Positions 393 through 16,645 of a stretch of DNA of 64,000 nucleotides are shown piece by piece. Positions within the stretch are counted from its first letter, which is position 1; each line of letters begins with the position of its first letter. This DNA comes from an uncultured delta proteobacterium (lineage in GTDB: Bacteria; Myxococcota_A; Polyangia; Polyangiales; Polyangiaceae): contig CAWJCS010000006.1 of the NCBI GenBank assembly GCA_963841435.1, positions 224,001 through 288,000 on the forward strand. The letters are read 5' to 3'. Position numbers and translations under genes: made by a program. The notes beneath the pieces were generated by a model. The model saw nothing but the letters and a program-made list of their open reading frames with translations. It searched no databases and was not told the origin of the DNA.

Positions 393-833
393 ATGCTGCC
401 AAAACCGTCCGCGTTGTTCGGGGTCCGGAGTCGCGTGCTGCGGGACTGTGTCCCACGGGTGCTATTGGCCGACGACGACCCCGACATCCGCGCCGAGCTG
501 GCCTCCATCCTCGCCGAGGACGGCTGCTCTGTCGTGGAGGCGCGGGATGGCTACGAGCTCATGGACCTCCTCGCTCCGTACGCCACATCGCCCGGCGTAG
601 CACCGTATGACGCGATCGTGACCAACGTCATGATGCCCGGGTTCAGCGGTCTCGACGTGCTCACAGCGGTAAGGCGTCACCTTGGCAGGACGCCCGTCCT
701 GGTCGTCACCGCCTTCGGCGACACTCGCACTTGCCTCGCCGCGCGGGCGCTCGGCAACGTCGCCGTCATGAAGAAGCCGATCGATCTCGACGATCTCCGG
801 GCCACTCTGGCAAACTTGCTCGAAATGGCCTGA
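393..833 (+). CDS. Single-domain response regulator; phosphoacceptor position reads Asn
   Basis: VLLADDD...IVTNVMMPG...VTAFG...KKP receiver motifs; start uncertain. Confidence 0.85.
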   Translation: MLPKPSALFGVRSRVLRDCVPRVLLADDDPDIRAELASILAEDGCSVVEARDGYELMDLLAPYATSPGVAPYDAIVTNVMMPGFSGLDVLTAVRRHLGRTPVLVVTAFGDTRTCLAARALGNVAVMKKPIDLDDLRATLANLLEMA

Positions 834-1274
834 GACTGGCGCCGCGGGGCCGCCCTTCAGTGCTTCGAGGCACGCCGACGGCGCGGCGCAGGGACTGGGC
901 CGTCTCCCCAAAAGCGGCGCTCGGGTCCCAGATCCGGAGCGAGAGCCCGGGGCCGTCCTTCCGGATCGCGCTCGAAGACACCCCGAGCTCCACGACGCAG
1001 TCGCGATCGTACGGGTCGTTGCCCCACCTGCCTCGCCGGCGCTCGAGCGGCACGCCGTTCAGCGTCGCCTTTGCGTCGGGGGCAGGGAGCTTGCAGGGGC
1101 CTTGGGGTCGTGTTCCGAAGCCACGATTGCGACGGCGCCCAGCGAAACGAGAGAGACGGAGGGGTTGAGCGTCGGGTCGGGGATGTCGGCCAGGCGCTTC
1201 ACGGGAGAGCACGCGAAGGCAGCGCCGAAGACGGCTACCGCCCCACGTGCGAGCTTGCGGCTCGGGTCCCTCAC
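766..1274 (-). pseudogene. Frameshifted putative lipoprotein, last gene of the antiporter/MscS operon
   Basis: GTG overlaps the MscS stop (GTGA); MRDPSRKLARGAVAVFGAAFAC lipobox; reading continues in another frame near 1100 (PCKLPAPDAKATLNGVPL...); 3' end uncertain. Confidence 0.4.
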
Positions 1275-2185
1275 CGCTCCGCGCCCACACCCGCGCCTCC
1301 CCCGACCCTCCGGAGCGTCGCCTCCAGTTGCCCCCGCGCATCCCTCTGCGCCCTCGCCGCCCAAACCTGGATCTCCACGGTCACGATCCGCTCGTTCTCC
1401 GCGCCCCGCGTCACGTCCACGAGGCTCTCCGGCGCTCGATACGGCGACAGCGCTGCCACCTGACGCAACCGCTCGAGCATTTTCTGGTCCGGCCGCTCTT
1501 CGAGCTCCAGTCGCACGCGGACGGGCACGCTGTTGCGCGCTCGCCCGACGACGACGGGTAGCTCGTTCAGGAGCCGATTCGGCACGAGCACGGTCGAGCC
1601 GTCCGCGCCGCGTAGGTAGAGCTGCCCGATGCCGACCTCGCGGACGACGCCTTCGTGGTCGCCGACTTTGACGCGGTCCCCAACCCGAATTCTGCGCCGC
1701 AGCGTCAGCGCAATCCCCGCGAACACGTTCGGCACGAACCCCGACAGGAACAGTGCGCCCAAGAGCGCCGCCATGAGAAATACCCCCGTGAGCACCGGCG
1801 CAACCCCGAGCGCCCCGCGCAGGAGCGTCAGAGTGGCGAGTAGCGCGACGACCAGGCGCAAGAGGCCCGAGGTGCGCGCCCAGCGGCGCTCGCCGTCGAA
1901 GCCGAGGCGCCAGGCGAGCTTGACCAGCGTCTGAATCAGCGTGTTCAGCGCGAAGGCGAGCGCGACGACGAGCGCGATGAAAAGGAGGTGTGTCGGCCCG
2001 AACAGGCTGCCGAGGGCTTCGCTTTCGTTCAGGAGCGCCTCGACCCCGGGAGCACCTCCCTTGGCCCCGGGGGACGTGCCAGGCGCCGTGCCCCGCGACG
2101 CGCAGCCGAGCGCAACGAGCGACCCCGCGACGACGAGCAGAGCGGCCGGGACCCGTGCCAAGGAGCTAGCGCGTGATGCCGGCAT
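1271..2185 (-). CDS. mscS: MscS-family mechanosensitive channel
   Basis: TM helices followed by NVFAGIALTLRRRIRVGDRVKVGDHEGVVREVG...DGSTVLVPN. Confidence 0.85.
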   Translation of the reverse strand: MPASRASSLARVPAALLVVAGSLVALGCASRGTAPGTSPGAKGGAPGVEALLNESEALGSLFGPTHLLFIALVVALAFALNTLIQTLVKLAWRLGFDGERRWARTSGLLRLVVALLATLTLLRGALGVAPVLTGVFLMAALLGALFLSGFVPNVFAGIALTLRRRIRVGDRVKVGDHEGVVREVGIGQLYLRGADGSTVLVPNRLLNELPVVVGRARNSVPVRVRLELEERPDQKMLERLRQVAALSPYRAPESLVDVTRGAENERIVTVEIQVWAARAQRDARGQLEATLRRVGGGAGVGAER

Positions 2186-5100
2186 CGCGGAGGGCTCCTA
2201 GGACTAAGGGTTTGAGACGGGGGACGACGGTTAGGCGCGATTCGGTCTGGGGGTCGCGGGAAAGGACGCCGGAGGAGAGGAAGAAGTGGGTGTGGCGGCC
2301 GATTTCGGCTTCGGTAAGCTCGAGGTAGCGGGCGAGCTCGGGCTCGTCGAAGGGGCCGAAGCGGGTGAGGTGCGAGAGGATGGCGAGCTGGCTCGCGGAG
2401 AGGTGCGTGAGCAGGGAGAGGCCGATGCGCAGGTCCAGCTGGAGCTCGAGCTCGATGGAGCCGTCGGGCGCGACGCGCGCGGCGCGAAGCCAGGAGAGGA
2501 CGGCAGCGCTGAGGTTGCCTTCGGTGCTGCGCGCGAGCATGCGGAGGAAGACCCCGCGCGCGTCGCCGAAGCCGAAGCGGCGCAGGAGCTTGCTGAGGGC
2601 GGTCCGGGGGTAGACGACGGCGCGACGGCTGATGCCGTGGCGCCCTTCGAGGAAGCTGCCGAGCTTTTCGACGGAGAGGGGTGCGATGGCGATGACGCGC
2701 GTGAAGGCAGGCTTGATGGGCATGACCTCTTCGAGCAGCGCGAGGCTCGATTGCTCGACGGCCACGAGCCAGAAGACTTGGCTGTCGGTCGCGACGACGA
2801 GCTCGAGGAAGCGCGTGAGCTCGGCGATGCCCGCCGCGTCCGGCGTGAACCATTGCTCGAGGTCGTCGATGAGGACGGTGGTACGGGTGTCCTTGAGGGC
2901 GAGGGCCATGTCGCTCACGCGGTCGCCGAGGCCGAGCTCGATGGAAAGGGCGCGGACGATGCCGATGCTACGGCGCCATTCGATGGGCTCGGGGCGGATG
3001 ACGCGCGGGGCGCTGAGCTCGACCTCGCACAGGTTCAAGAGCGAGGTGCGGCCTGAGCCGGAGCGGCCGACGAGCAGGGCGGAGCCGCGCCGGCCCTGGA
3101 GGCTGCTTCGCTCCGTGGCGAGGAGCTCCTGCAGGGTCTCGCGGTTGGCGGTGAAGAGGGCGTGCTTGCGCACGGGCTCGGCGCGCCAGAGGCGGGCGTA
3201 GTCGCGCGGCAGGTGCGTGAGGTCGGCGAAGCGGGCGAGGTGGGTGTCGAGCGAGGCGGCGTCAACGCCTTCGCGCTGGTAGCGCGCGCGGACGCCTTTG
3301 GACAGGTCGCTGCCGAGCAATCGGGCCCAGGCGGCGCGGCCGCGCGTGGTGAGGCGGGCGAGCGCCAGGAAGGGGCGCTCGAGCGGGCGCTTGAGACGCG
3401 TGAAGAAGGTGATGTGCTCGGCCTCTTCGGCGCCCCGCGCGCGGACCTCGAAGATGCCGGTGATCTCGCGGTAGGCGGCGCCGGCGCGCTCGCGCACGCC
3501 GCGGCTCGCGCTCTGTTGGCCCTGCTCCAGCGTCTTTAGCTGCTCGTCGAGGCGCATCAGCGCGCGGTCGAAGGCGCGCTGGACCGCTTTCATCTCGGTC
3601 TCGGCGCCGTGCGGCGGCGTTTCGAGGGCGTGCTCGCAGATTTCGACGGCCTCGCGGATGCGGGCGCCCGTGACGGCCATCTCGGCGAACACCTGGCGCA
3701 GCTGCTCGTCGAGCGCCGGGAAGAGGGTTTCGATGAGCACCTCTTCGACGCGCACGCGGAGCTCGACGGGCTCGACGCGGTAGGTCGCCGGGCTCGGCTC
3801 GGCGTCGAGGCTCTGCGCCTGCGGCACGAGCACGGTGGCGGGCAGGGTCTCGATGCTGACGCGGATCTCGCGCGCGACGCTGCCGACCGTCGCGGCGGAG
3901 CGGAAGCGCGTGGCGGCGAGAGCCAGGCGGCGCTGCGCTTCGGGCGGGCAGGTGCCACGCGCCCACTCGGCGAGGACGGCGCGCCGCTCGACGCCGAGCT
4001 CCGCGGTCTTTGCGATCTCCGTCGCGAGCTCGCTCAGGCGCTGGCGCGCGGCGCCGAGGACGGAGCTGGCGACCTCGAGCGAGGCCTGGGCAGGACCGAG
4101 CACGGTCGCGTCGAGCGTCCTGCGGATGCGAGCGACCAGGCTCTCTATTTCGAGCTTGGCCTTGAGCTCGGCCTGCTTGCCCTCGAGCACGGGCTTCCAC
4201 GCCGCGGGATCGGCGCGCAGGCGCTCGAGGCGGCGGTGGATGCTCGGCTCCTTGTCCGAGAGGCGGATTTTGGCGCTGGGCAGGCTCGGCCCGCCGGCGA
4301 TCGCGAGCGAGCGCACGAATTCTTCGAAGCCGGTCAGGACGTAGAGGCGGGAGTGGCGCTCGAAGTTGACGAGGAAGCGCGCGAGGCTCGAGCTCGCGGC
4401 CAGGCGGGTTTGCTCGCGGTCTTCGCCGTTCTGGCGCGAGCGCTCGAGCTCGGTGAGCAGGTGCGCCTGCGCTTCGCTCCAGGCCGAGAGGGTGGAGAGG
4501 GCGAGGCCGGCCAGGCGCGCTTCGAGCGTGAGGCGGGCCACCAGGCGCGAGGGCACGCGGCGCGTGGCGGGACCGAAGCGGAAGAGGCGCCCGACGGCGC
4601 GGCTCCGCTTGCGGAAGCGGACGCGGAAGGGATCGCCCGGGAGCACTTTCTTGTTCGTGCGCTCGAGCGGGACGAGGGTGCGCGATTCGACGGAGCGCAG
4701 GCGCGCTTGCAGATCGCTGAAGAGGCGGTGGCACGCCGCCGCGCGATCCGGCAGGTCTTCGGCGTGGGGGACCTGGCTCCAGGCGTGCAGGGCGTCGGCG
4801 ATGTCGTCGTCGCTCTCGACCTCGGTCAGGACTTTCTCGAGCGGGCCACCGATGGTTTTGACCCAAGGCTCGAGCTCGGTGTGGAGGAAGTCGTCGAGGC
4901 GCTCGGAGATGTCGGCGTGCAGCACGACGACCAGATCCTGGAGCTTCTCGCTCTCGAGCTCGCCCGCGATGGCGGTGATCTCGCGCAGCTCCTCGACCGC
5001 GACGGGCGGCACCTCGGTGCTGCGCTCCGGATCGGCCCCGGGGGGCGCGCCGCTCGGCGTGGTGGCTCGTTCTGGCTGCTCGGCCTCGCCTTCATGCGTT

Positions 5101-6374
5101 TCGCCCGCTCGCTTGAGGATGCGCTTGAGGGCGATGGGGCCGACCAGGAGGTTGATGGCGACGCCCGCCATCCCGAGCGTCTTCAGCTGGTCGCCGACCA
5201 TGGGCAGCTGCTGCGCGGACAGGCCCACGAGGCCGAGGGTCACGCCCGCTTGCGGCAGGTAGCCGAGCCAGGCGTGGTCGCGGATCAGAGGGCGCTCATG
5301 GCCGAAGCGACCGCCGACGCGCGAGGCAACGCGGTAGCCGACGGCGCGCGCGAGGGCGAGGGCAATGGCGACGGGCAGGATGCCGAGCGTCGAGTGCAGG
5401 TCGACGCTGGCGCCCGCGATCGTGAAAAAGACGATGAAGACGGGCAGCGCCACCATCTGCACGGCGGGCATCAGATCGTGCTCGTGGCGGCTGGCGTTGC
5501 GCACGACGAAGCCGGCGGTGATGAACACCAAGAGCAGCTCGAGGTGCAGCGTCCGCCCCACCTCCGACACGACCAGGATCATGGCCGCGACGAAGAGCAG
5601 CATCTCCGCCTTGACCAGGCGGATGTACAGGATGAGCAGGCCGCCGAGCACGGCGCCGGCGAGGAGCGAGCTGCCGAGCTCCTTGCCCACCAGGACCAGA
5701 ACCGATTCGCTTTCGTGCTCGCCGGGGACGAGCCAGCTCTTCGAGAGCGCCACCGCCACGGCCAGGCAGATGACGACGATGAGGTCCTTGAGGACGGCGG
5801 CGCCGAGCACGAGGTCGGTGAGGCGGCCACGAGCGCGGGACTCGGTTTTGACGGCGAGGGCGATGGCAGGCGAGGTGCCGATGGAGAGCACGCCGAGCAC
5901 GAGCGCGACGGAGTAGACGTGGGCGCGATCGCCGAACCCGAGCGCGGGCACCGAAAGGGCGATGGCGACGAAGGTGCCGCCCACGAGCACGACGCCGAGC
6001 ACGATCTTGACCGCGATGGTGCCGAGCAGGGTGTAGAGGACCTTCGCGATCTCCTTCACGTCGAGCTCGAGACCCGCGCCCGTGGCGATGAGGCCGAGCG
6101 CCAAGGCGTTGAACATGCGCATCTCGCCGACGACGCTCTTGGACAGCACGTTGGCGACGGACGGGCCGAGCGCGACGCCGGCCAAGATGTAGCCGGTGAC
6201 GCGCGGCAGGGTGAGCCCGCTGCCGACCTCGGCGAGCGTGAAGGAGGCGAGAAGGACGAAGCCGATGGCCGCGAGCGTCATCGGATCGCGCGCGCCGGGG
6301 ATGGGCTCGGCGCGCAGGAGCTGCAGGGAGAACATCACCCCGAACAGCACCAGAAGGACGATGATCCGCCTCAC
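2166..6374 (-). CDS. 1402-aa cation:proton antiporter fused to a long helical region, a P-loop ATPase-like domain and a C-terminal wHTH
   Basis: N-terminal ~420 aa multi-TM (LPRVTGYILAGVALGP, TSPA, LKD, PQAGVTLGL); Walker A-like GRSGSGRTS; Walker B VLIDDLE; wHTH-like tail. Confidence 0.8.
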   Translation of the reverse strand: MRRIIVLLVLFGVMFSLQLLRAEPIPGARDPMTLAAIGFVLLASFTLAEVGSGLTLPRVTGYILAGVALGPSVANVLSKSVVGEMRMFNALALGLIATGAGLELDVKEIAKVLYTLLGTIAVKIVLGVVLVGGTFVAIALSVPALGFGDRAHVYSVALVLGVLSIGTSPAIALAVKTESRARGRLTDLVLGAAVLKDLIVVICLAVAVALSKSWLVPGEHESESVLVLVGKELGSSLLAGAVLGGLLILYIRLVKAEMLLFVAAMILVVSEVGRTLHLELLLVFITAGFVVRNASRHEHDLMPAVQMVALPVFIVFFTIAGASVDLHSTLGILPVAIALALARAVGYRVASRVGGRFGHERPLIRDHAWLGYLPQAGVTLGLVGLSAQQLPMVGDQLKTLGMAGVAINLLVGPIALKRILKRAGETHEGEAEQPERATTPSGAPPGADPERSTEVPPVAVEELREITAIAGELESEKLQDLVVVLHADISERLDDFLHTELEPWVKTIGGPLEKVLTEVESDDDIADALHAWSQVPHAEDLPDRAAACHRLFSDLQARLRSVESRTLVPLERTNKKVLPGDPFRVRFRKRSRAVGRLFRFGPATRRVPSRLVARLTLEARLAGLALSTLSAWSEAQAHLLTELERSRQNGEDREQTRLAASSSLARFLVNFERHSRLYVLTGFEEFVRSLAIAGGPSLPSAKIRLSDKEPSIHRRLERLRADPAAWKPVLEGKQAELKAKLEIESLVARIRRTLDATVLGPAQASLEVASSVLGAARQRLSELATEIAKTAELGVERRAVLAEWARGTCPPEAQRRLALAATRFRSAATVGSVAREIRVSIETLPATVLVPQAQSLDAEPSPATYRVEPVELRVRVEEVLIETLFPALDEQLRQVFAEMAVTGARIREAVEICEHALETPPHGAETEMKAVQRAFDRALMRLDEQLKTLEQGQQSASRGVRERAGAAYREITGIFEVRARGAEEAEHITFFTRLKRPLERPFLALARLTTRGRAAWARLLGSDLSKGVRARYQREGVDAASLDTHLARFADLTHLPRDYARLWRAEPVRKHALFTANRETLQELLATERSSLQGRRGSALLVGRSGSGRTSLLNLCEVELSAPRVIRPEPIEWRRSIGIVRALSIELGLGDRVSDMALALKDTRTTVLIDDLEQWFTPDAAGIAELTRFLELVVATDSQVFWLVAVEQSSLALLEEVMPIKPAFTRVIAIAPLSVEKLGSFLEGRHGISRRAVVYPRTALSKLLRRFGFGDARGVFLRMLARSTEGNLSAAVLSWLRAARVAPDGSIELELQLDLRIGLSLLTHLSASQLAILSHLTRFGPFDEPELARYLELTEAEIGRHTHFFLSSGVLSRDPQTESRLTVVPRLKPLVLGALRDAGITR

Positions 6375-7702
6375 GACGACGCCTCCCCGTGGCCAGGCGT
6401 CGGGAGCGCGGGCGCGGGCGGCGACGAGCTCGTTTTGGGCTCGGGGGCGAGGTTCACGTCGCTGCCGAGCTCACCGGCGTCCGACAGGACGCGGCGGGTG
6501 ACGCGCTGGCTGAAGAGCTCGGAGAGCAGCGTGCCGAGCAGCACCGTCGTCAAGACGAGCGACTCCCATTTGGGGAAGCGCATCGCAAAATCGACGGCGA
6601 TGGCCGTGGCGAGCGTGCCCTGGCCGAGGAAGGCCAGACCGATGCGCGGGACCGGCTCGCTCAAAAGCAGGCGCGAGAAGAAGCCCGTGACCAGGCGGCG
6701 CGCCGCGACGCGCACGACGACGTAGGCGAACGGCATGAGCCAGGCGAGGCCGCGTACCGGGGACCAGAGCGCGCCCGCGAAGATCATGGTGAGCACGAAC
6801 AGGACGTGCTGCAGGCGGTCGAGCTCGTGGCGCAGGCGGCCGGCGTGCGAGGAGGTGGTGGCGACGGTGAGGCCGGCGAGGAGGTTCACGAAGAGCGGCG
6901 AGACGGCGAGCACGGCCCCGGCTCCGGCGGCGAAGGTGACCAGGCCCACGCTCGCGAGGAAGATGCGGCTCGGATCGCTGTCCTTGCCGATGAACAGGCC
7001 GAAAAGCAGACCGAGCACGACGCTGCCGGCGATGGCCGCGACCTCCCACTGCCAGACGTGGAGCGAGATGCTGCCGCCGCTGCCCTCGGCGGCACGCGTG
7101 GTCGCGAGCACCAAGCCGAGCACGATGACGGCCGTGAGCTGGCTCGCCCGGGCGGCCGCCTGCAGGACGTCGGTCACCGGGCCCGCGGCGCCGTGCACGC
7201 GAATGAGCCCCTCGATGAGCACGCTCGAGGTGACCGCGGCCGCCGCGCCGATGCAGAGCGCGAGCCAGAGGTGGTCGCTCGTCAGGTAGACCTCGAAGAG
7301 CCAGTCCGTGCCGCGCAAGAGCTCGCGCTGAAAGACCACGTGGTGCAGATCGCCCGGGACGAGGCTCACGAGCAGCGGGAGCAGGCAGGCGCCCGTGAGC
7401 GCGACGACGCCGAGCGCCGAGCCGAAGCCCAAGAAGGCGAGGCGGGGCGTCTTGATCGCCTCGCGGCCGCGCAGGCCCACGACGAAGCCCGTCAGGCCGA
7501 GCAGCAGCGAAATCAGCGGGCGCACGAAGTCGAGCGTCGACTCGTGCAGAAGGCCGAGGCCCGCATGCGGGCCGATGAGCACGCCGACGAGCATGTACTC
7601 GGCGCCGGACAGCACGACGTAGCGAGACGCGAAGCGCGCGACCAGGCGCCCGATGATGAAGCTCGAGATCACGACGACGACGAGCAGCAGCGTGACGCTC
7701 AC
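6371..7702 (-). CDS. Cation:proton antiporter-family membrane protein
   Basis: Multi-TM; SGAEYMLVGVLIGP and GQGTLATAIA; 4-bp overlaps with both neighbours. Confidence 0.75.
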   Translation of the reverse strand: MSVTLLLVVVVISSFIIGRLVARFASRYVVLSGAEYMLVGVLIGPHAGLGLLHESTLDFVRPLISLLLGLTGFVVGLRGREAIKTPRLAFLGFGSALGVVALTGACLLPLLVSLVPGDLHHVVFQRELLRGTDWLFEVYLTSDHLWLALCIGAAAAVTSSVLIEGLIRVHGAAGPVTDVLQAAARASQLTAVIVLGLVLATTRAAEGSGGSISLHVWQWEVAAIAGSVVLGLLFGLFIGKDSDPSRIFLASVGLVTFAAGAGAVLAVSPLFVNLLAGLTVATTSSHAGRLRHELDRLQHVLFVLTMIFAGALWSPVRGLAWLMPFAYVVVRVAARRLVTGFFSRLLLSEPVPRIGLAFLGQGTLATAIAVDFAMRFPKWESLVLTTVLLGTLLSELFSQRVTRRVLSDAGELGSDVNLAPEPKTSSSPPAPALPTPGHGEASS

Positions 7703-8967
7703 GGCGCTTGCTCCTGGCTGCTGCGAAGCTCGCGATCCTTGGCGGCCCAGGCGGTCGCACCGTCGGGGGCGACGGTGACGCTGTGAGCGTCCACGATGGT
7801 CACCGAGAGCTCGCCCTTCGGCGTGTCTTTGAGCGCCCAGTCGAGCGCGTCCTTCGGCGAGCCGGTGCGGACGAGCTGGTCGTAAACGCCGCGCGCGAGC
7901 AGGCGCTCGAGGATGGGCTCGCCCGAGCCGCTGACGAACACGGCGCCCGCGGAGCCGACGTACAGGGCCGCGCCGGGCACGGAGACGTCGCCCACGCGGC
8001 CCGGCAAGCTTAGCCAGGGTCCGCCGCCGCTCACGACGCCCACGAAGGTGCCGCCCGCGCAGCGAGCGAGCACTGCCACGGTGTCGCCGCCCACCGGGGC
8101 GGGCGCGCGGGGGAGCGGAGGCGGGCGCGGTGCCGACGTGGCGGGCGTCGAGGCGCGGGGCGCTGGGAGGGCGGTGGGTGCGGCGGGGCGAGGCGCGGAC
8201 GGTGCGTGCGGCACCCGGCGCGGGACGTACGCCTGCCAGACGGCGGGGGCTCCCGCGACGCCGGCGTTCGGCCAGGCGACGACGCCCGGCTCGGGCGCGC
8301 CGCCGTCCGGCGCTTGGAGCTCGGCGAGCAACGCTTTGTAGCGCGCGGTGCTCGCCTCGGTGCGCACCTCGAAGGTATCGACGCCGAGCAGGCGTGCGAA
8401 GCGCAGGGCGCCGGCGCCGGCCAGCGTGTGGTGCGGCGTGTCGGCGACAGCGCGCGCGACCTCGGAGGGGTGGCGGACATTGGTGAGCCCGGTGACCGAG
8501 CCGAATTGTCCAGCCGAGGTCATCACCGCGGCGTCGAGCTCCACGCTGCCGTCGAGCCGAAGCGCGGAGCCGATGCCGGCGTTGAGCGCCGGATCGTCCT
8601 CGAGCACGGCGACACCGGCGACGGCCGCATCCAGGCAGCTCGCGCCCGAGTCGAGCGCCTGCTCGGCGCGCTCGAGCGCGGCGGTGACGCTCGCGACCTC
8701 GCCCGGGCTCGTGCCGATGCCGGCCACGGCAACCAGCGCGACGGGGCCCGCGGGAGCCGACGCTTCCGCTGTCGCGCCGGCGTCAACGAGCGCGAGCGGA
8801 TCCGGATCGCCGGGAGGACGCGCGCTCGCCGCGCCGGAAACAGACGCGGCCGGCGCGCTCGCGCTCGGCTCGCGCCGCTCATGGGTGCTGCGAATGCGGC
8901 AGCCCGAGGTCGCCAAGAGGAGCGGTCCAAAAGCGGCCGCCACGGTCAGGAGTCGAGCCGGGTCCAA
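7699..8967 (-). CDS. Isoaspartyl peptidase/asparaginase-like Ntn hydrolase with lipoprotein signal
   Basis: LEDDPALNAGIGS, ELDAAVM, GDTVAVLA (nucleophile Thr), GRVGD; LLLATSGC lipobox; start inferred at TTG 8967. Confidence 0.8.
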   Translation of the reverse strand: MDPARLLTVAAAFGPLLLATSGCRIRSTHERREPSASAPAASVSGAASARPPGDPDPLALVDAGATAEASAPAGPVALVAVAGIGTSPGEVASVTAALERAEQALDSGASCLDAAVAGVAVLEDDPALNAGIGSALRLDGSVELDAAVMTSAGQFGSVTGLTNVRHPSEVARAVADTPHHTLAGAGALRFARLLGVDTFEVRTEASTARYKALLAELQAPDGGAPEPGVVAWPNAGVAGAPAVWQAYVPRRVPHAPSAPRPAAPTALPAPRASTPATSAPRPPPLPRAPAPVGGDTVAVLARCAGGTFVGVVSGGGPWLSLPGRVGDVSVPGAALYVGSAGAVFVSGSGEPILERLLARGVYDQLVRTGSPKDALDWALKDTPKGELSVTIVDAHSVTVAPDGATAWAAKDRELRSSQEQAP

Positions 8968-9072
8968 GGGACGGGCATGGTACACGACCGGGCGCGCAGC
9001 GCAGGCTGCGTCCGGTCTGCGTAGCGGTGATTGCGGACCGAATCCGTCCGCAATTGGGGGTAGGTTCCGGGC

Positions 9073-9696
9073 ATGTCCCTCGTCCTCTTTCACCACCCGT
9101 TTTCCCGTGCTGCCGGCGTCCTGTGGATGCTGGAGGAGGTTGGGGTTCCCTACACACTCCGTTTCATCGACATCACTAGGGGTGAGCAAAAGCAGCCCGA
9201 GCTCTTGTCGCTCAATCCCATGGGCAAGTTGCCGACCCTCACCGACGGCGACACGGTGGTGAGCGAGTCGGCGGCCATCGCCCTTTATCTCGCCGATCGC
9301 TACGCGCCGGGTCGGCTCGCTCCGCCCATCGACGATCCGCGTCGCGGTCCCTACCTGCGCTGGTCGTTCTTCGCGCCCTCGGTGATTGAGCCGGGAGTGA
9401 TGGCGAAGCTCGGAAGCTGGCAATATCGCGAGAGCGCCGCCGGGTGGGGCTCACACGGCGAGATGCTCGCGGCGATGAAGAGCGCCATCACGGGCGACTA
9501 CATTCTGGGCGACAGCTTTTCGATGGCCGACGTCGTGTTCGGTGGGACGGTGCGCTACATGCTGAGGGTGGCGTCGCTCGAGCCCGATCCGGTCTTCGAC
9601 GCCTACGTCGCGCGCCTGTCGGCGCGGCCCGCGTTGAAGCGGGCGGACGAGCGCAACGCCGCAATCATCGCGGAACGCGGGTTGATGTCGAGGTAA
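9073..9696 (+). CDS. Glutathione S-transferase
   Basis: LNPMGKLPTL, SESAAIALYL, FSMADV motifs. Confidence 0.92.
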   Translation: MSLVLFHHPFSRAAGVLWMLEEVGVPYTLRFIDITRGEQKQPELLSLNPMGKLPTLTDGDTVVSESAAIALYLADRYAPGRLAPPIDDPRRGPYLRWSFFAPSVIEPGVMAKLGSWQYRESAAGWGSHGEMLAAMKSAITGDYILGDSFSMADVVFGGTVRYMLRVASLEPDPVFDAYVARLSARPALKRADERNAAIIAERGLMSR

Positions 9697-9699
9697 GGA

Positions 9700-9734
9700 T
9701 CGCGTCGCGTCGCGTCGCTTCGCTTCGCTTCGCT
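9700..9734. repeat. Pentanucleotide microsatellite (TCGCG)3(TCGCT)4
   Basis: Read directly, just after the GST stop. Confidence 0.85.
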
Positions 9735-9759
9735 GGTGCGCAGGATGGCCGCGAAACGG

Positions 9760-10250
9760 AGGAAGCAGCAGCTCCCCTCGCGCTCTCCCATCGCGACTCG
9801 CCGCCAGCGCCGCTCCCCCCTTGGGCTCGCGACGGATACGACTTCTTGCGCGCCAAGCTCGCGCTCGATCCCGAGCTCGTGTGCCCCCGAGGCGCGAACT
9901 GCGTTTCGGTCTACGCCGTTCTCTCGGAGGTCCGCGCCCTGCGCGAGGCCGCGGCTCCCCTGCTCCCCGAGCTCGTCTCCTTCCTCGAGTCCAAAAGCAC
10001 CTCCCTCCACATACCGACCCTTCTGGTGTTGAAGGGCATGCGCGAGAAGGCTCGCCCCGCCGTTCCCAAGCTGGTCACTCTCCTCGGGCGCGACCCGAAC
10101 TCGGGCTCGGACGACGTCGACAGCGAGACCTTCTTCGTCCTCGAGGCGATCGCAGCGGCACGCCCTTCCCCGGCGAGCGTGAAGCGAACTCTCCTCGGCA
10201 CGGTGCGACGGGATTCGGAGCGATTCGACAACGTCGCGGCGCCACCGCGG
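9760..10250 (+). pseudogene. HEAT-repeat-like protein fragment
   Basis: AAAPLLPELVSFL...KARPAVPKLVTLL repeats; no clean start or end; boundaries approximate. Confidence 0.35.
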
Positions 10251-10409
10251 GAGCTCCGGCCCTGGATGCTCATTGGGGGGAGGGCCGGCGCGCCGCCGAC
10301 GCTCGGCTGCACGTCTTCGCCCACGGCGATGAGCTTCGTGGCTTGGGACCTTCTTGCGTGGCGGTGCACGCGGTGCTTGGCACGCACGGCGACGCGCCGT
10401 GCCAGCCCG

Positions 10410-12332
10410 TTACATCGACACCTGGGAACCGACCTCGACGACGCGCTGCTGCGGCAGATTGAAGAACGCCGTGGGGCGGACGGCGTTTCGTGAAAGAAAC
10501 GAAAACAGGTGCGTGCGAACGCGAGCCATCGTGCCGCGTCCCTCGGGAAGCACGAGCTCGTTTCCGAGAAAGAACGTCGTGTACGCGATGGGTGGCGTGG
10601 GGGTGTCTTCCCTGGCCAGGAGCGCAACGACGTCCGGCTGCTCCATGAAGCCGTAGCGGGCAACCACGCGCGTGAATCCGTGGCTCAATCGCTCCACCCG
10701 GACCCGCTCGCCGTCATCGACACGGGAAACTTCTTCGATGACGATGGTGAGGAGCAGGACCTGCTCGTGCACCGCGTGGTTGTGCAAGAAATTGTGCATC
10801 AGCGCCCGTGGAGTTCCTGCGGGGTTGCCCGTCATGTAGACGGCCGTGCCAGGGACCCTTAGTGCCGGCTCGACGCTCAGAAGCTCGAAGAAATCGTCGA
10901 GTGGCACCATGTTGTCCTGGACCCGTTTGCCGAGCAGCGTCCTGCCCCGATACCAGGTCGTCATGATCGTGAACACGAGGGCTCCGACCGCCAGCGGAAA
11001 CCAGCCACCCGCGAAGAGCTTGACGATCATCGATCCGAAGAACGCGACGTCGGCGCTCAGAAACACGGTCGTGACGGCGATCGATTGCCACAGCTTCCAG
11101 CCCCAGAGCCGCTGCGTGACCACGAAGGCCAAGAGCGTCGTGATCAGCATCGTCGCGGTCAGCGCCACGCCATACGCGGACGCCACGTTGGTGGAATTCC
11201 GAAATCCCACCACGACCGCGATGGTCGTCACCATCAGCAGCCCGTTCACCAGTGGAACGTAGATCTGCCCTATCTCGCGCGCCGAGGTGTGTCGGATGAG
11301 GAGCCGCGGCAAGTAGCCGAGCTGCACGGCCTGCCGCGTCAACGAGAACGATCCCGAGATGATGGCCTGGGACGCGATGATCGCGGCCAGCGTGGCGAGC
11401 AGCAGCAGCGGGTAGCGGGCCCAGGCAGGAGCCAACAGGTAGAAAGGATTGTCGACTGCTTCCGGATTGGAGAGCACGAGCGCCCCTTGACCGAAATAGT
11501 TCAGGAGCAACGCTGGGCAAACCACGGCAAACCAGTCGAGCTGGATGGCCCGCTCGTGAAAGTGCCCGAGGTCGGCGTACAGCGCCTCACCCCCGGTCGC
11601 GACCAAGAAGACGGCGCCGAGAACGAGAAACCCCGAAAGGCCATTTTCGACGAAGAAGCGCACAGCGTGGACGGGATTGACGGCCGCAAGCACGCCTGGA
11701 AAAAAAAGGATACCGCGGATCCCGAGCACGGTTAGCGCCGCGAACCAGACGAGAATGACGGGCCCGAAGACGGCGCCGATCCCGGCGGTCCCGCGCTTCT
11801 GGAACAGGAACAGCCCGACCAGGATGGCCACGCTCAACGGGACCACGTATCGGCTGAAGTCGGCGTGCCCGACCTCGAGGCCCTCCATGGCTCCCAACAC
11901 CGAGATCGCCGGCGTGAGCACGCCGTCGGCGTAGAGCAGGGCTGCTCCGAACAGGCCGAGCACGAGGACCACCGAGCGCGCCCGCCCCGTGACCTTGCCG
12001 TGTACGAGCGCCATCAACGCGAGGATCCCACCCTCGCCCCGATTGTCGGCTCTGAGCACGTACACGTGGTACTTCAGCGTCACGACCACGACGACCGTCC
12101 AGAAGATGAGCGAGAGCACACCGAGGACGTTCCCCGTCGATACCGCGACAGCGTGGGATCCGCGAAAGCACTCTCGCACGGCGTAAAGAGGGCTGGTCCC
12201 GATATCACCGTAAACGACTCCGATGGCCGCCAGGCTCAACCCGAGCAGATAGCGGCCTCTTGGCGCCTCCTCGGCGCGGCGCGCTTCGCGGGCTTCGTTC
12301 ACGGGCTCCGATCCAGCGTCGAGGTCGAGCAT
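10410..12332 (-). CDS. kup: KUP/HAK/KT potassium transporter
   Basis: GVVYGDIGTSPLYA, ADNRGEGG, GEALYADLGHF, GQIYVP. Confidence 0.96.
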   Translation of the reverse strand: MLDLDAGSEPVNEAREARRAEEAPRGRYLLGLSLAAIGVVYGDIGTSPLYAVRECFRGSHAVAVSTGNVLGVLSLIFWTVVVVVTLKYHVYVLRADNRGEGGILALMALVHGKVTGRARSVVLVLGLFGAALLYADGVLTPAISVLGAMEGLEVGHADFSRYVVPLSVAILVGLFLFQKRGTAGIGAVFGPVILVWFAALTVLGIRGILFFPGVLAAVNPVHAVRFFVENGLSGFLVLGAVFLVATGGEALYADLGHFHERAIQLDWFAVVCPALLLNYFGQGALVLSNPEAVDNPFYLLAPAWARYPLLLLATLAAIIASQAIISGSFSLTRQAVQLGYLPRLLIRHTSAREIGQIYVPLVNGLLMVTTIAVVVGFRNSTNVASAYGVALTATMLITTLLAFVVTQRLWGWKLWQSIAVTTVFLSADVAFFGSMIVKLFAGGWFPLAVGALVFTIMTTWYRGRTLLGKRVQDNMVPLDDFFELLSVEPALRVPGTAVYMTGNPAGTPRALMHNFLHNHAVHEQVLLLTIVIEEVSRVDDGERVRVERLSHGFTRVVARYGFMEQPDVVALLAREDTPTPPIAYTTFFLGNELVLPEGRGTMARVRTHLFSFLSRNAVRPTAFFNLPQQRVVEVGSQVSM

Positions 12333-12417
12333 GGTCGAGGCCAGTCTGGCCTTCCCGTCGTCGGCGCGTTGCAAGGATTGCCGGCGCGGGCGTCAGGATT
12401 TCGTTAAGGGTCGTGCG

Positions 12418-13158
12418 TCAAGCTCGCGAGCGCGGCGCGGGCGCGGGCTCTTCGTCTCTCAGCCGATATCCGACACCGGGCTCGTTCGCCAAATAGCGCG
12501 GGCGCGTGGGATCCGGTTCGATCTTGTGGCGGATCTGGCCCATGAAGACGCGCAGATACGCGGTGTGCTCCACGTATGGCGCCCCCCACACCTCTCGGAG
12601 CAGCTGGCGGTGCGTGACCACCCTGCCGGCGTGCTGGACGAGCACGGCGAGCAACTTGTACTCCGTCGGCGTCAGGTGGACTTCCTTGCCGTCCGTGAAG
12701 ACCTGGCGTCGCGCCAAGTCCACTCGAAGCGCTCCCGTTTCGAACACCGCGTCGGCGCGGTCCGAAGCCCAATCGACGACGTGCCGGAGCGCGACCCGGA
12801 TCCGTGCCAAGAGCTCGCCCGTGCTGAACGGCTTGGTCAAGTAGTCGTCGGCTCCCTCGTCGAGGGCGCGGATCTTGTCCTCGTCGCGGCCGCGCGCGCT
12901 GATGACGATGATCGGTGCGCGCGTCCATTCCCTGAGACGCGTCGTCACCTCGATGCCGTCGATGTCAGGCAGGCCAAGGTCCAGCAAGATGACGTCCGGG
13001 TTGTGGCTTCCGGCCTGCACGAGGCCGTCTTTGCCGCTCGTGGTCTCCACCACCCGGTAGTCGTGCGCCGTGAGGGTTGCGCGCAGGAATCGGAGCACCT
13101 GTGGCTCGTCGTCCACGATCAAGACCAGCGGCCGTGGCCTCCCCGTCGCTTCACCCAT
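12418..13158 (-). CDS. kdpE: KdpE response regulator (REC + OmpR wHTH)
   Basis: LDLGLPD, GADDYLTKPF, LTPTEY...HRQLLREVWG...EPGVGYR; overlaps the kdpD stop. Confidence 0.93.
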   Translation of the reverse strand: MGEATGRPRPLVLIVDDEPQVLRFLRATLTAHDYRVVETTSGKDGLVQAGSHNPDVILLDLGLPDIDGIEVTTRLREWTRAPIIVISARGRDEDKIRALDEGADDYLTKPFSTGELLARIRVALRHVVDWASDRADAVFETGALRVDLARRQVFTDGKEVHLTPTEYKLLAVLVQHAGRVVTHRQLLREVWGAPYVEHTAYLRVFMGQIRHKIEPDPTRPRYLANEPGVGYRLRDEEPAPAPRSRA

Positions 13159-15862
13159 CGGAAAGCTCCGGGAGGCCGCCGTCGGGAGGCCGCCCCTCCA
13201 CGGGCAGCGTGAAGCGGACGCTGGTGCCGCCACCCGGGCGCGACGAGGCGTGGATCCGCCCACCGTGTGCGACGGCAATCGCTCGACAGATGGCCAGGCC
13301 GAGCCCGACGCCCGGCGGGCGCGTCGTGCCGTGGCCTGCGCGATAGAACTTCTCGAAGACGCGTTCCTCCTCGCCGGGGGACAGACCGGGCCCGCGATCA
13401 GCGACCTCTAGCTCGACTGACCCTGGTCCGCTCTCGGCCGTCACCTCGATCGCGGCCGTGGGCGGCGTATGTTTGGCGACGTTCTCGAGCAGGTTCACGA
13501 GCAGCTGTTCGACCAACACCGCGTCGAACGGGGCCAGCAAATCCCCGGGAACGCGCGTTTCGACCTCGCGACCTGCCAGCAGGGCGTCGACGCGATTCAG
13601 CGCGGCTCCGACGACTTCCTCGACGGATTGCCACTCTTTCGTGATGACGACCTGGCCCGATTCGAGACGCGTCATGTCGAGAACGTTGGAGATCAGCCGC
13701 TCGAGGCGATTGGTCCCCTCGACCAGTGTTTCGAGGAGCTCGCTCTGCGTGCTCGGGTCGAGCTTGTCGCGGTTGTCGGCGAGCGTGGTTGCCGCGCCCT
13801 TCATCACGGCCAGGGGGGTGCGCAGATCGTGCGAAACCGAGCTCAACAGCGTGCTGCGTAGCCGCTCGGCCTCGACGGTCACTCGGGCGCGCTCCGTTTC
13901 GCTCGCGAGCGTCGCGCGCTCGATGGCCATTGCCATTTGGGCGGCGAAGGCGTCGACCAGGCGTTGCTGCTCCGGGTCGCTGAAGCGCTCCGGGTCGTCC
14001 GCGAACGAGGCAAGGACGCCGAGCGGTTCGCCGCTGCCGCTCGAGCCCACGAGCGGCAGATAGTAGCCATCGTCGCCCGGCAAAGTGCTCGTACCGCGCC
14101 CGGCCTCGCGTCGGTTCGCCCACACCCACCCTGCGAGGTCCAGCTCGTGCGTCGCGGGAACGGCAAGCCCATCGGTCAGATAGCTGACCTCGAGCGCGCC
14201 GTCGGCCCCGCGCTGGAACAACGCTACCCTGCACTCCAGCGCCTCCTCGATATGACGCGCGGCTATCCTCGAGAGGTCGCTCGCGGCCTGGGCCCGCGAA
14301 AGCTCCCGGCTCATGGCGTACAGCATGGCGGTGCGTCGCTCCGTGCGTTGCGAGATGACCGCCTGGTCCCGAACGCGTTGGGTCAGCCCCGTGATGACGA
14401 GCGCGACCACGAGCATGACGCCGAAGGTGACGAGGTAACGCAGGTCGGCGACCGTGAACGCGTAGTACGGCGGAGTGAAGAAGAAGTCGAATGCCAGGAC
14501 CCCCAGCGTCGCCGCGAGCACCGAGGCTCCGAACCCCGTCCGCACGGACACCACGACGACCCCTAGGAGGTAGATCATCACGACGTCGGGCAGGTCGGTG
14601 CGTCCGAACAAGAGGGCGCTCACCACCGTGGCGCCGACGATGACGCCGGCCGCCGTCGCATACCCTCCTCGCCGGCGCGACGTGACACGGCTCGGGCGAG
14701 CGGGGGCATCCGTGGCGGACTCGCCGGCGGTAAAGTACACGTCGATTTCGCTTTCGCTGCCGAGGATGAGCTCGTCGACCAACGGCGTCGTGACCCGGTC
14801 CCGGAAGCGGCGCGACCGCGGCTTTCCGAGGACGATCTTGGTCACATCGTGCTCGCGTGCGAAGCGCAGGATCGTATCCGCGGCGTGCTCGGCGGCAAGC
14901 GTCACGGTTTCTGCGCCGAGCTCTTCGGCGAGCCGGAGGTTCGCGGCAGCGCGCGCACGATCGCCGGGCGGCAGCCTGAGCGTCGCCGGCGTCTCGACCA
15001 TGACCGCGTACCAGCGAGTGCGCAGGCTCGCCGCCATGCGCCGCCCGGTGCGCAACAGATCCGCGGAGTATGGGCTCGGACCGATGCAGACCAGCAGGCG
15101 GTCGCCGGCTCCCCATGCCTGCTCGACGCCATGAGCCCGGCGGTACTCGTCCATCTCCGCGTCAACGCGTTCCGCGGTGCGGCGCAGCGAAAGCTCGCGC
15201 ATCGCAATCAGGTTGCCCTTGCGGAGGAAGCTCTGGGCTGCCCGCTCTGTCCGCTCCGGGAGGTGTATCTTCCCCTCACGCAGGCGGGCGAGGAGCTTCT
15301 CCGGCGGTAGATCGATGAGCTTGATTTCGTGGGCGCCGTCGAGAATCGAATCCGGGACCGTATCGCGCACGCGTACACCCGTGATCTGGTAAACGACGTC
15401 GTTCAGGCTCTCGACGTGTTGCACGTTCAGCGTCGTGCACACGTCGATGCCTGCGTCGAGCAGCTCCTCGACGTCCTGCCAGCGCTTCGGGTGGCGCGTG
15501 CCTTCGGCGTTCGTGTGCGAAAGCTCGTCGATCAGCAGCAGCCGGGGCCGGCGCGAAAGCGCCGCGTCCAGATCGAGCTCCGGGACCTTCCGACCACCCT
15601 CGTCGAGCTCCTTGCTCTCTAGAAGCTCGAACCCGGCCAGCAGGGTCGCCGTCTCGAAGCGACCGTGCGTCTCCACGACCCCCGCGACCACGTCCACGCG
15701 CTCGACGTCGCGCTTGTAACCCGCCTCATCGAGCATCGCGAAGGTCTTGCCCACGCCCGGCGCCGCGCCGAAGTAGATCGTGAGCTGTCCGCGCGCCCGC
15801 TTGCGCTCCTCACCCTGCGCGCTCCGCAGCACAACGTCGAGGTCGGGCCGGGCCGCCGTCAT
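13151..15862 (-). CDS. kdpD: KdpD sensor histidine kinase
   Basis: GAAPGVGKT, DELSHTN..KRWQDVEELL, Usp domain, 4 TM, GAF, SHDLRTPL, HATPase. Confidence 0.96.
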   Translation of the reverse strand: MTAARPDLDVVLRSAQGEERKRARGQLTIYFGAAPGVGKTFAMLDEAGYKRDVERVDVVAGVVETHGRFETATLLAGFELLESKELDEGGRKVPELDLDAALSRRPRLLLIDELSHTNAEGTRHPKRWQDVEELLDAGIDVCTTLNVQHVESLNDVVYQITGVRVRDTVPDSILDGAHEIKLIDLPPEKLLARLREGKIHLPERTERAAQSFLRKGNLIAMRELSLRRTAERVDAEMDEYRRAHGVEQAWGAGDRLLVCIGPSPYSADLLRTGRRMAASLRTRWYAVMVETPATLRLPPGDRARAAANLRLAEELGAETVTLAAEHAADTILRFAREHDVTKIVLGKPRSRRFRDRVTTPLVDELILGSESEIDVYFTAGESATDAPARPSRVTSRRRGGYATAAGVIVGATVVSALLFGRTDLPDVVMIYLLGVVVVSVRTGFGASVLAATLGVLAFDFFFTPPYYAFTVADLRYLVTFGVMLVVALVITGLTQRVRDQAVISQRTERRTAMLYAMSRELSRAQAASDLSRIAARHIEEALECRVALFQRGADGALEVSYLTDGLAVPATHELDLAGWVWANRREAGRGTSTLPGDDGYYLPLVGSSGSGEPLGVLASFADDPERFSDPEQQRLVDAFAAQMAMAIERATLASETERARVTVEAERLRSTLLSSVSHDLRTPLAVMKGAATTLADNRDKLDPSTQSELLETLVEGTNRLERLISNVLDMTRLESGQVVITKEWQSVEEVVGAALNRVDALLAGREVETRVPGDLLAPFDAVLVEQLLVNLLENVAKHTPPTAAIEVTAESGPGSVELEVADRGPGLSPGEEERVFEKFYRAGHGTTRPPGVGLGLAICRAIAVAHGGRIHASSRPGGGTSVRFTLPVEGRPPDGGLPELSDG

Positions 15863-16037
15863 GGGTCCGATGCACCCTGACACACCTTGTATAAGGAACT
15901 TGCAAAATCAGCTGCTGGGGGGCTCCTTCGCCGCCGACCCAGCAACCGTCGGAGATTCGCCGCGCGTCAACCGGCAGACGAGCGGCGCCGCTTCAGGGGC
16001 ACCCTTTTGCGAGGGCGGTGATTGACTCGGGCCGCGG

Positions 16038-16260: not shown

Positions 16261-16645
16261 TCGAGCCGCCAGATCGGCGCGCCGCGGAGCGACATTCCGC
16301 ACCGCAGGCCCCCTCCGGCCACGCTCGTACGGCGACTCGGAACCTAGAGGCAGAAGTGGGCGGGTGGGAGAGGGTGCCTGACGATGCCCGCATTCTCGGG
16401 GCTCGGACTCTTCATCCTCCTCGGCGGCGGTGATTCGGCGGACGCTCGTGGCCTGGCCCGCCCTACGCTTCCGTTCCGAGCACAGCGTCCAATGCTTCGG
16501 CTCGCGAGCGTCCGGAAGCAGCCCCCCGCCTCTTCGAGGATTCGTCGGGGGGGCTTCCCGTCCGGATTCGCGAGGTTGGCGTAGCGAGAGCGAATTCCTC
16601 CACGGCAGCCGATCATTTTCGTGCTCCCCCCACAAAGGCGAGACG

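Follow-up and report, generated by a model that had tools for sequence, protein, structure and literature searches.

A Membrane Operon in the Polyangiaceae

We analyzed a 64,000-nucleotide (nt) stretch of DNA from an uncultured member of the Polyangiaceae (contig CAWJCS010000006.1 of assembly GCA_963841435.1, positions 224,001 to 288,000), which we call the window. Near its start lies a minus-strand operon in which a cation/proton antiporter (CPA) domain is fused to a P-loop AAA+ ATPase module. Window proteins were scanned against Pfam, and gene ends, starts, and overlaps were read from the sequence. Four open reading frames (ORFs), at 7699-9423, 6371-7702, 2166-6374, and 1271-2185, encode an Asparaginase_2-family protein, a CPA-like partner, the CPA fusion, and an MscS-like protein, respectively, and the four genes are translationally coupled. 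The first-pass annotation of this DNA had described five overlapping genes. The overlaps that it reported were all found (GTGA stop/start overlaps at 7699-7702, 6371-6374, and 1271-1274, and a 20-nt overlap at 2166-2185), and four of the genes stand, but the fifth, at 766-1274, is not one ORF. The GC content is 0.70 to 0.72 over 2 to 10 kb, compared with roughly 0.65 to 0.70 across most other parts of the window. The features of the partner, the fusion, and the MscS-like gene are as follows.

6371-7702, minus strand: degenerate CPA-like partner, 443 amino acids (aa), a polytopic membrane protein (collinear match to the CPA domain of the fusion)
5088-6374, minus strand: CPA (Na_H_Exchanger) transmembrane domain, fusion residues 1-429 (PF00999, E = 2e-21)
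5784-5789, minus strand: Lys196-Asp197, at the place of the ND/DD ion-binding motif (HMMER alignment to the ND of NHE9)
3270-4982, minus strand: family-specific helical region, residues ~465-1035 (AlphaFold2 model of 973 aa)
2169-3269, minus strand: predicted AAA+ module of Orc1/Cdc6-RuvB type, with alpha-beta-alpha base, helical lid, and winged helix (AlphaFold2, fold searches)
3042-3068, minus strand: Walker A, GRSGSGRTS, residues 1103-1111, with Arg1109 for the canonical Lys (sequence)
2856-2876, minus strand: Walker B, VLIDDLE, residues 1167-1173, with Asp1170 and Asp1171 (sequence)
1271-2185, minus strand: MscS-like protein, 304 aa (PF00924, E = 9.3e-13), sharing 20 nt at its start with the end of the fusion gene

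The CPA-AAA+ Fusion and Its Family

The fusion gene (2166-6374) encodes a protein of 1402 aa in which the CPA domain is followed by ~570 aa of helical region and then by an AAA+ domain and its winged helix. The long extra region that had been noticed behind the second antiporter is borne out, as AlphaFold2 and fold matches resolve the C-terminal 973 aa into a helical region, a P-loop ATPase, and a winged helix.

Relatives of the same architecture are numerous. With residues 460-1402 as the query, a word-indexed search gave 20 cluster representatives of 1387 to 1522 aa, the window's own included; PF00999 was present in all 20 of these near-length proteins, and the 19 relatives ranged from 87% down to 26% identity. 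In an exhaustive HMMER search of 50%-identity clusters with the C-terminal 973 aa as the query, 1039 clusters matched at an E value of ≤1e-3, 318 at ≤1e-10, and 104 at ≤1e-30; among the matches listed, most were 1350 to 1470 aa long and aligned at about 430-1400. We then have 166 proteins (P0007-P0172), all recognized by a C-terminal hidden Markov model (HMM) built here, which were scored with our own CPA HMM. This matched every one of the 119 proteins of at least 1250 aa and 7 proteins of 900 to 1250 aa, and did not match 4 proteins of 900 to 1250 aa and 36 shorter ones; many of these CPA-less proteins are probably fragments. PF00999 was found at an E value of ≤1e-3 in 25 of 35 scanned relatives. 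Given the CPA domain in all near-length representatives and all long relatives, together with cluster matches of ~1400 aa, the CPA-AAA+ fusion is the usual form of the family. The predicted joining of antiporter, ATPase, and winged helix is therefore real and widely conserved, and it is no stop-loss or assembly artifact. One member, P0023 of Enhygromyxa salina (1391 aa), is named “diguanylate cyclase/phosphodiesterase” by one source; this name looks like a misannotation, since Pfam finds only PF00999.

All fusion-family sources with a name belong to Polyangia or Bdellovibrionota, among them Enhygromyxa, Plesiocystis, and Paraliomyxa, which are marine myxobacteria. Within the window's genus, the C-terminal query, run with a stricter first look, matched 1 of 47 genomes at an E value of ≤1e-10, that of the window alone (G000); in the other 46, including the unpublished G046, the family profile met only unfused CPA genes and CPA-less paralogues. 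When the helical part was the query and 10 candidates per genome were scored, matches came from 4 of the 151 genomes sampled within the order. With so few carriers in genus and order, the module is accessory within the lineage, although its gene order is stable across phyla. Full-text literature searches met no description of a CPA-AAA+ fusion or of an ATPase-linked MscS.

An Unusual Ion Site and a Degenerate Partner

PF00999 covers fusion residues 41-421 at 76.7 bits (gathering cutoff, 26.2), and the CPA2 model TIGR00932 gave 43 bits, under its cutoff of 238. In the HMMER alignment, the A-T-D-P of NHE9 (unwound TM4) is aligned with G-T-S-P of the fusion and the N-D of NHE9 with K196-D197, and neither K196 nor D197 varies among 20 family members. 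According to the available portions of the sources, the Asp at position 7 of the CPA motif (EcNhaA D164) is essential and present in 94% of CPAs (PMC6181914), position 6 is D, N, or Q (PMC6181914, PMC10224563), and K+-selective Kef-like CPA2s carry L-S-S-T...Q-D (PMC6181914, Masrati et al. 2018; Kef review, PMC10224563). By these measures the fusion has the Pfam score and the position 7 Asp of a CPA, with Lys196 in place of D, N, or Q at position 6. It lacks the marks of the K+-selective Kef-like CPA2s, having G-T-S-P rather than L-S-S-T and no Pfam match to a TrkA_N (KTN)/RCK domain.

The 443-aa partner had no Pfam match even at an E value of ≤10. Its CPA-fold homology is based on a collinear alignment with the fusion CPA domain (26% over 411 aa, E = 4e-4) and on HMMs built here. 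At motif positions 6 and 7 the window partner has Ser-Gln instead of Asp/Asn-Asp, and among 60 partners, 47 have Gln at position 7, 8 have Glu, and 2 have Asp. Since the Asp needed for CPA transport is lost, the partner, if it pairs with the fusion, is probably a nontransporting subunit. The first-pass annotation had called the two proteins paired antiporters; a collinear CPA-like pair is indeed present, but the first of the two lacks both a Pfam match and the transport Asp. The same division, with D197 invariant in the fusion and lost in the partner, recurs in an unfused pair on contig C3 of the window's genome (S-D versus S-A).

That unfused pair (L098, G000:C3:824000-836000, positions 2777-9329, minus strand) consists of a 450-aa protein without the motif Asp and a 456-aa protein with it. 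It is preceded by a 608-aa MscS-domain protein and followed by two TauE/SafE exporter genes, and many genomes of the genus have similar adjacent unfused CPA pairs. All four CPA-like proteins of the window's genome (P0002, P0003, and the L098 pair) have an (R/D)AGE motif just past the last transmembrane (TM) helix, at residues ~420-427 of P0003, which is possibly a common cytoplasmic docking motif.

The Helical Arm and the AAA+/Winged-Helix Module

The C-terminal 973 aa were modeled by AlphaFold2 with a pLDDT of 90.4 and a pTM of 0.79. In this model the helical region has two small beta hairpins, and its helices are very long, with ~80 residues in one. It had no Pfam match at an E value of ≤0.05, the ESM Atlas gave no usable match, and, searched within the 973-aa model, the arm matched only generic or designed helical bundles (Z ~14, in the nonspecific range). 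Against Protein Data Bank sequences, the C-terminal 973 aa had no match at an E value of ≤10, and the family profile had none at ≤0.001.

The module that follows is more recognizable. AlphaFold2 modeled residues 1030-1402 from a 77-row alignment with a pLDDT of 93.4 and a pTM of 0.91, and Foldseek matched this model to RuvB, Orc1/Cdc6, eukaryotic ORC subunits, and archaeal SSO1545 (E, 4e-10 to 1e-7). VIA-align of the 973-aa model likewise placed Cdc6 in ORC (Z 15.3; root mean square deviation [rmsd] 8.4, 273 residues aligned) and Orc1/Cdc6 (Z 15.1; rmsd 8.7, 301 aligned) at the top, with RFC, TnsC, MuB, BrxC, NLR, and Avs NTPases next at Z 11 to 13. The appendage is thus, as modeled, an AAA+ base and lid with a winged helix. 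The motifs and the winged helix had been called correctly at the outset: GRSGSGRTS, with its Lys-to-Arg change, and VLIDDLE lie at residues 1103-1111 and 1167-1173, and the winged helix emerges from AlphaFold2 and the fold matches. In Pfam, the window module had sub-threshold matches to nSTAND1 (E = 0.011, 15.8 bits against a cutoff of 27.1), AAA_16, and MarR, and 35 relatives showed recurrent AAA_22, AAA_16, and nSTAND1 matches near the cutoffs, with nSTAND1 at 33.2 bits in P0108. No STAND-type repeat domain follows the winged helix, either in the sequence or in the AlphaFold2 model.

We surveyed the Walker motifs in 67 full-length proteins, 66 from 80 public loci plus that of the window. At the Walker A lysine position, 35 have Lys, 31 have Arg, and 1 has Met, and the window protein departs from the canonical GxxGxGK[ST]. 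D1170 does not vary among 20 family members; of the 66 K- or R-type proteins, 65 have D1170 and 55 have D1171. In a FastTree phylogeny inferred without the P-loop columns, the Walker A label changes at least 4 to 6 times, and the window falls in an all-Arg clade of 11, beside a Polyangiaceae metagenome-assembled genome (MAG). The split between Lys, Arg, and Met and the existence of an all-Arg clade indicate that the change is specific to clades and no trait of the family. The Arg-type proteins retain GxxGxG (31/31), D1170 (31/31), D1171 (30/31), and R1245 (31/31), and the constancy of GxxGxG, D1170, and R1245 argues that the nucleotide site is under selection. An Arg in place of the Walker A Lys suggests a site that binds nucleotide and hydrolyzes little of it.

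The MscS-Like Protein and Its Link to the ATPase

The 304-aa protein encoded downstream is, by its sequence, an MscS-family member and a predicted channel. PF00924 (MscS beta domain) covers residues 151-209 at 48.5 bits against a cutoff of 20.2, and hydropathy shows a signal- or lipobox-like N terminus and three hydrophobic helices before the beta domain.

How firmly is this gene tied to the fusion? It lies directly downstream in all 70 loci with enough flanking DNA to be evaluated, and in at least six relatives the MscS domain is fused in cis. It is C-terminal on the same polypeptide and above the Pfam cutoff in P0025 and in the 1515-aa single ORF of L025, and in P0024, P0121, P0131, and P0172 our own HMM finds it after the winged helix (E, 6e-14 to 1e-26). 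Moreover, in all 7 loci retrieved from the genus for AAA+/winged-helix paralogues that lack a CPA domain, the next gene downstream is MscS-like. The cis fusions and the CPA-less paralogues are two independent lines of sequence evidence that tie the AAA+ module to MscS, and the linkage proposed in the first-pass annotation stands on all of these counts.

The CPA-less paralogues are proteins of ~1050 to 1150 aa with a signal or TM segment, a coiled coil, about six TM helices, AAA_22, and a winged helix. They form a family of at least 294 clusters whose only names are “AAA family ATPase,” “ATP-binding protein,” or “hypothetical.” The window's own genome holds such a paralogous two-gene module (L097, G000:C5:210000-226000, positions 6774-11173, minus strand). 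Its 1150-aa protein has a signal/TM segment, an Ala/Pro-rich stretch, a coiled coil, about six TM helices, an AAA_22 P-loop with the canonical Lys, and a winged helix, and the MscS-like gene follows with a 4-nt overlap.

Conservation of the Neighborhood

In GTDB species genomes, a pattern scan yielded 146 confirmed loci, and we retained 80. These come from Polyangiaceae, Nannocystaceae (Enhygromyxa salina, Plesiocystis pacifica SIR-1, and Paraliomyxa miuraensis), and Bdellovibrionales MAGs. By plain tblastn, 73 of the 80 loci have a match to the partner and 65 a match to MscS. For the synteny count, we added the window, giving 81 loci. Directly upstream of the fusion is the partner in 30 loci and TrkH in 44, together 74 of 74. 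The partner itself is upstream in 70 of 70 evaluable loci, adjacent to the fusion in 28 and in the order partner-TrkA-TrkH-fusion in 42, with TrkA and TrkH identified by Pfam; the window operon itself is without trkA-trkH. Gene order is stable from Polyangiaceae to Bdellovibrionales. Partner, fusion, and MscS thus travel together across Polyangia and Bdellovibrionota, and the expectation that these genes co-occur across genomes is upheld, with both partner and MscS in 70 of 70 evaluable loci.

HMM envelopes in some loci could be read as TrkH fused in frame to the exchanger. We rejected this: in L056, TrkH is a separate frame that ends at the fusion start, so the long TrkH-fusion frames are GC-rich read-through.

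Accessory and Neighboring Genes

Around the conserved genes the window contains the following features.

7699-8967, minus strand: Asparaginase_2-family protein (isoaspartyl peptidase/L-asparaginase type) with lipobox-like LLLATSGC (PF01112, E = 1.2e-40)
1059-1274, minus strand: doubtful 71-codon ORF with a lipobox-like N terminus, whose GTG at 1274 overlaps the MscS stop (GTGA)
393-833, convergent: response-regulator gene (Pfam), its 3' end overlapped by the 766-1274 region

The likely start of the asparaginase ORF (7699-9423) is TTG 8967 or GTG 8985, before the lipobox-like LLLATSGC, and its stop overlaps the start of the partner gene (GTGA, 7699-7702). Of the 81 loci, 20 have a homologue upstream of the module, which makes this gene accessory and no part of the core. 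Where the Polyangiaceae-type loci have Asparaginase_2 before the module, at least 13 Nannocystaceae-type loci (e.g., L031, L034, L035, L044, and L048-L050) instead have a Peptidase_M28 protein with a PA domain after MscS; a periplasmic hydrolase, M28/PA or Asparaginase_2, thus recurs at one end of the operon.

The first-pass annotation had also spoken of lipoproteins. The first of these is the Asparaginase_2 protein, with its lipobox-like signal; the second is a doubtful frame without relatives. The frame that ends at 766 differs from the one that begins at GTG 1274, and GC content at third codon positions is coding-like only at ~840-1000. None of the 80 related loci has a relative of either piece, and at an E value of ≤1 there were only three chance-level matches. 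We therefore rejected a single fifth gene at 766-1274, with its two different frames and lack of relatives; the 1059-1274 ORF and the frame to 766 may represent a frameshifted gene or an assembly indel, and the ORF is outside the conserved module.

Just upstream of the module, genes for Kup (K_trans), KdpE, and KdpD lie head to tail on the minus strand (window 10410-15883), and no kdpFABC genes were recognized in the 10 kb beyond them. These three genes were considered as parts of the module and rejected, as they adjoin it in the window and in none of the 80 other loci. Farther on, DUF4910/DUF2172 extends over two consecutive plus-strand ORFs (window 16430-18025), the front of DUF4910 in 16430-17521 and its end, with HTH_47, in 17552-18025; the pair may be a frameshifted or split gene.

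Proposed Function and Alternative Explanations

We propose that these genes form a conserved, uncharacterized membrane module, a nucleotide-switched exchanger/MscS system for ion or osmotic homeostasis, and we give this reading about an even chance of being right. An ion or osmotic role, which the first-pass annotation had placed in stress, fits the insertion of trkA-trkH in 42 of 70 loci. CPA proteins are normally dimeric. The Asp-bearing CPA domain would be the transporting subunit, and the Asp-less partner would pair with it as a scaffold, a pairing suggested by synteny and translational coupling. The cytoplasmic AAA+/winged-helix module would act as a nucleotide-dependent switch and not as a motor, in a role analogous to that of the KTN/RCK domains of Kef and Trk, such that its nucleotide state or an oligomeric change sets the activity of the exchanger. 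This switch would also be coupled, functionally and probably physically, to the adjoining or tethered MscS-like valve. The outcome would be coordination of ion uptake, ion/H+ exchange, and emergency solute release in salt or osmotic shifts.

A bolder version, which we consider tentative and rather unlikely, is that AAA+/winged-helix-MscS pairs constitute a new class of regulated mechanosensitive valve. Here the Orc/Cdc6-like switch, anchored by CPA or other TM domains, would dock on the cytoplasmic cage of MscS, the opening of the channel and ion/H+ exchange would be interdependent and tied to nucleotide state, and the Lys-Asp CPA site would be a sensor or a gated leak instead of a classical antiporter. 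If true, it would provide the first example of an ATP-regulated MscS and of a secondary transporter regulated by an AAA+ domain.

Several points weigh against a nucleotide-switched exchanger in ion or osmotic homeostasis. Orc/Cdc6-type winged helices usually bind DNA. The Lys at the CPA motif's position 6 is outside the D, N, and Q residues described in the available parts of the CPA literature, and with a permanent positive charge next to the binding Asp, the domain might lack the usual cation exchange. Judging from its TM4 sequence (G-T-S-P), the transported ion is not assignable to K+ by the Kef signature. The patchy spread of the module is unusual for core homeostasis. The HMMs used for the synteny count were built from the same loci that they scored, and the Kup/KdpE/KdpD neighborhood adds little, because it is found in none of the 80 other loci.

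The constancy of MscS invites another explanation. MscS accompanies the AAA+/winged-helix module whether a CPA domain is present or not (70/70 and 7/7), the P-loop is nearest to AAA_22 and AAA_16 by Pfam, and the best structural matches include loaders and remodelers such as ORC/Cdc6, RFC, TnsC, and MuB, so that the module might be an ATP-driven assembly or remodeling factor for the MscS-like heptamer or the whole membrane complex, with the CPA or TM domains mainly as anchors. However, Arg or Met replaces the Walker A Lys in about half of the family, a poor fit to a working motor, and a cis MscS fusion implies a permanent 1:1 association rather than a catalytic one. The invariance of D197 and of the remaining CPA core also argues that the CPA domain is more than an anchor, and we consider this explanation decidedly unlikely. 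The winged helix could alternatively make the fusion a membrane-tethered, DNA-binding one-component regulator through which transcription follows an ion state sensed by the CPA domain. This has in its favor weak MarR, MarR_2, and Sigma70_r4 matches and the DNA-binding ATPases Orc1/Cdc6 and RuvB as nearest folds. Yet the MarR-type scores are all under the cutoff, no conserved regulated target is evident beyond the operon itself, and in at least six relatives the MscS TM helices come directly after the winged helix, pinning it at the membrane between TM domains; we regard such a regulator as improbable and give it little weight.

The first-pass annotation had allowed an outside chance of defense by membrane depolarization. 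In such a defense or abortive-infection system, a STAND/Orc-like NTPase would sense invasion and open the CPA/MscS effectors, and the ion gradients would collapse. The patchy distribution in genus and order is what such a system might show, as are the STAND-like Walker B (hhhhDD), the sub-threshold nSTAND1 matches with one member above the cutoff, the structural matches to Avs, BrxC, and NLR NTPases at Z 11 to 13, and a weak PADLOC match to the PtuA P-loop. A closer look at these similarities is less encouraging: in PADLOC-DB 2.0, the fusion matched the AAA region of PtuA over 42 P-loop residues only (E, 1.7e-4 to 3e-3) and mad8 at an E value of 0.016, the other three operon proteins had no match, and the fusion has no C-terminal sensor repeat domain. 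The conserved neighbors are trkA-trkH, the second CPA gene, and MscS, not mobile or defense genes; the order of the genes holds from Polyangiaceae to Bdellovibrionales, and the CPA-less paralogue family is present across the genus. With so short a PtuA match and neighbors that belong to ion transport, defense has little support, and we see it as a very remote prospect.

Significance and Comparison with Known Systems

Bacterial control of ions and turgor has CPA exchangers, Trk, and MscS as its textbook components, and the known regulators of these are RCK/KTN, CBS, and cyclic-nucleotide domains. In the family described here, more than 1000 sequence clusters join a P-loop AAA+ module to an exchanger, and the link to an MscS-like gene is exceptionless in the loci examined. 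A conserved Lys-Asp ion site with an obligate Asp-less partner is in itself unusual among CPA proteins. As read from sequence, this is a widespread, unannotated variant of the CPA and MscS systems with what we propose to be a new kind of regulatory module. If the coupling that we infer is true, it would be a new regulatory principle for both transporter families and would offer a defined, testable system for the coordination of uptake, exchange, and emergency release.

The module shares its base, lid, and winged-helix tiers, with Walker A and B in place, with Orc1/Cdc6, RuvB, archaeal ATPase_2-type proteins (SSO1545 and PAB2304), and STAND NTPases. Unlike these, it is membrane tethered behind a transporter, is without replication or recombination neighbors and STAND sensor repeats, and has Arg for the Walker A Lys in about half of the family.

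Among transporters, the closest parallels are the glutathione-gated K+/H+ antiporters KefC and KefB, with their KTN/RCK domains and KefF/KefG. As the available text of the Kef review describes them, these too combine a CPA-fold exchanger with a large cytoplasmic nucleotide-binding C-terminal appendage, predicted in our case, and have an ancillary partner gene and a context of K+ homeostasis (PMC10224563). The fusion differs in having no detected KTN/RCK and, in its place, an appendage modeled as a ~570-aa helical arm with an Orc/Cdc6-like AAA+/winged-helix module. Its motif is G-T-S-P...K-D, in contrast to L-S-S-T...Q-D of Kef, its partner is a degenerate CPA paralogue and not a quinone reductase, and an MscS gene is obligately linked.

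TrkA-TrkH, in which an RCK ring provides ATP/ADP gating, is alike in principle, in that a cytoplasmic nucleotide-binding module gates a cation pathway, as we propose here, and its genes are physically inside the operon in 42 of 70 loci. The modules differ in kind, Rossmann-type RCK in Trk as opposed to P-loop AAA+ in the fusion. Some MscS-family channels also have regulatory domains; MscK and the cyclic-nucleotide-domain MscS-like proteins add an extra regulatory element to the MscS core (PF00924). In contrast to these, the extra element here would be an AAA+/winged-helix protein, separate from the channel or fused to its N terminus, that brings a transporter domain of its own.

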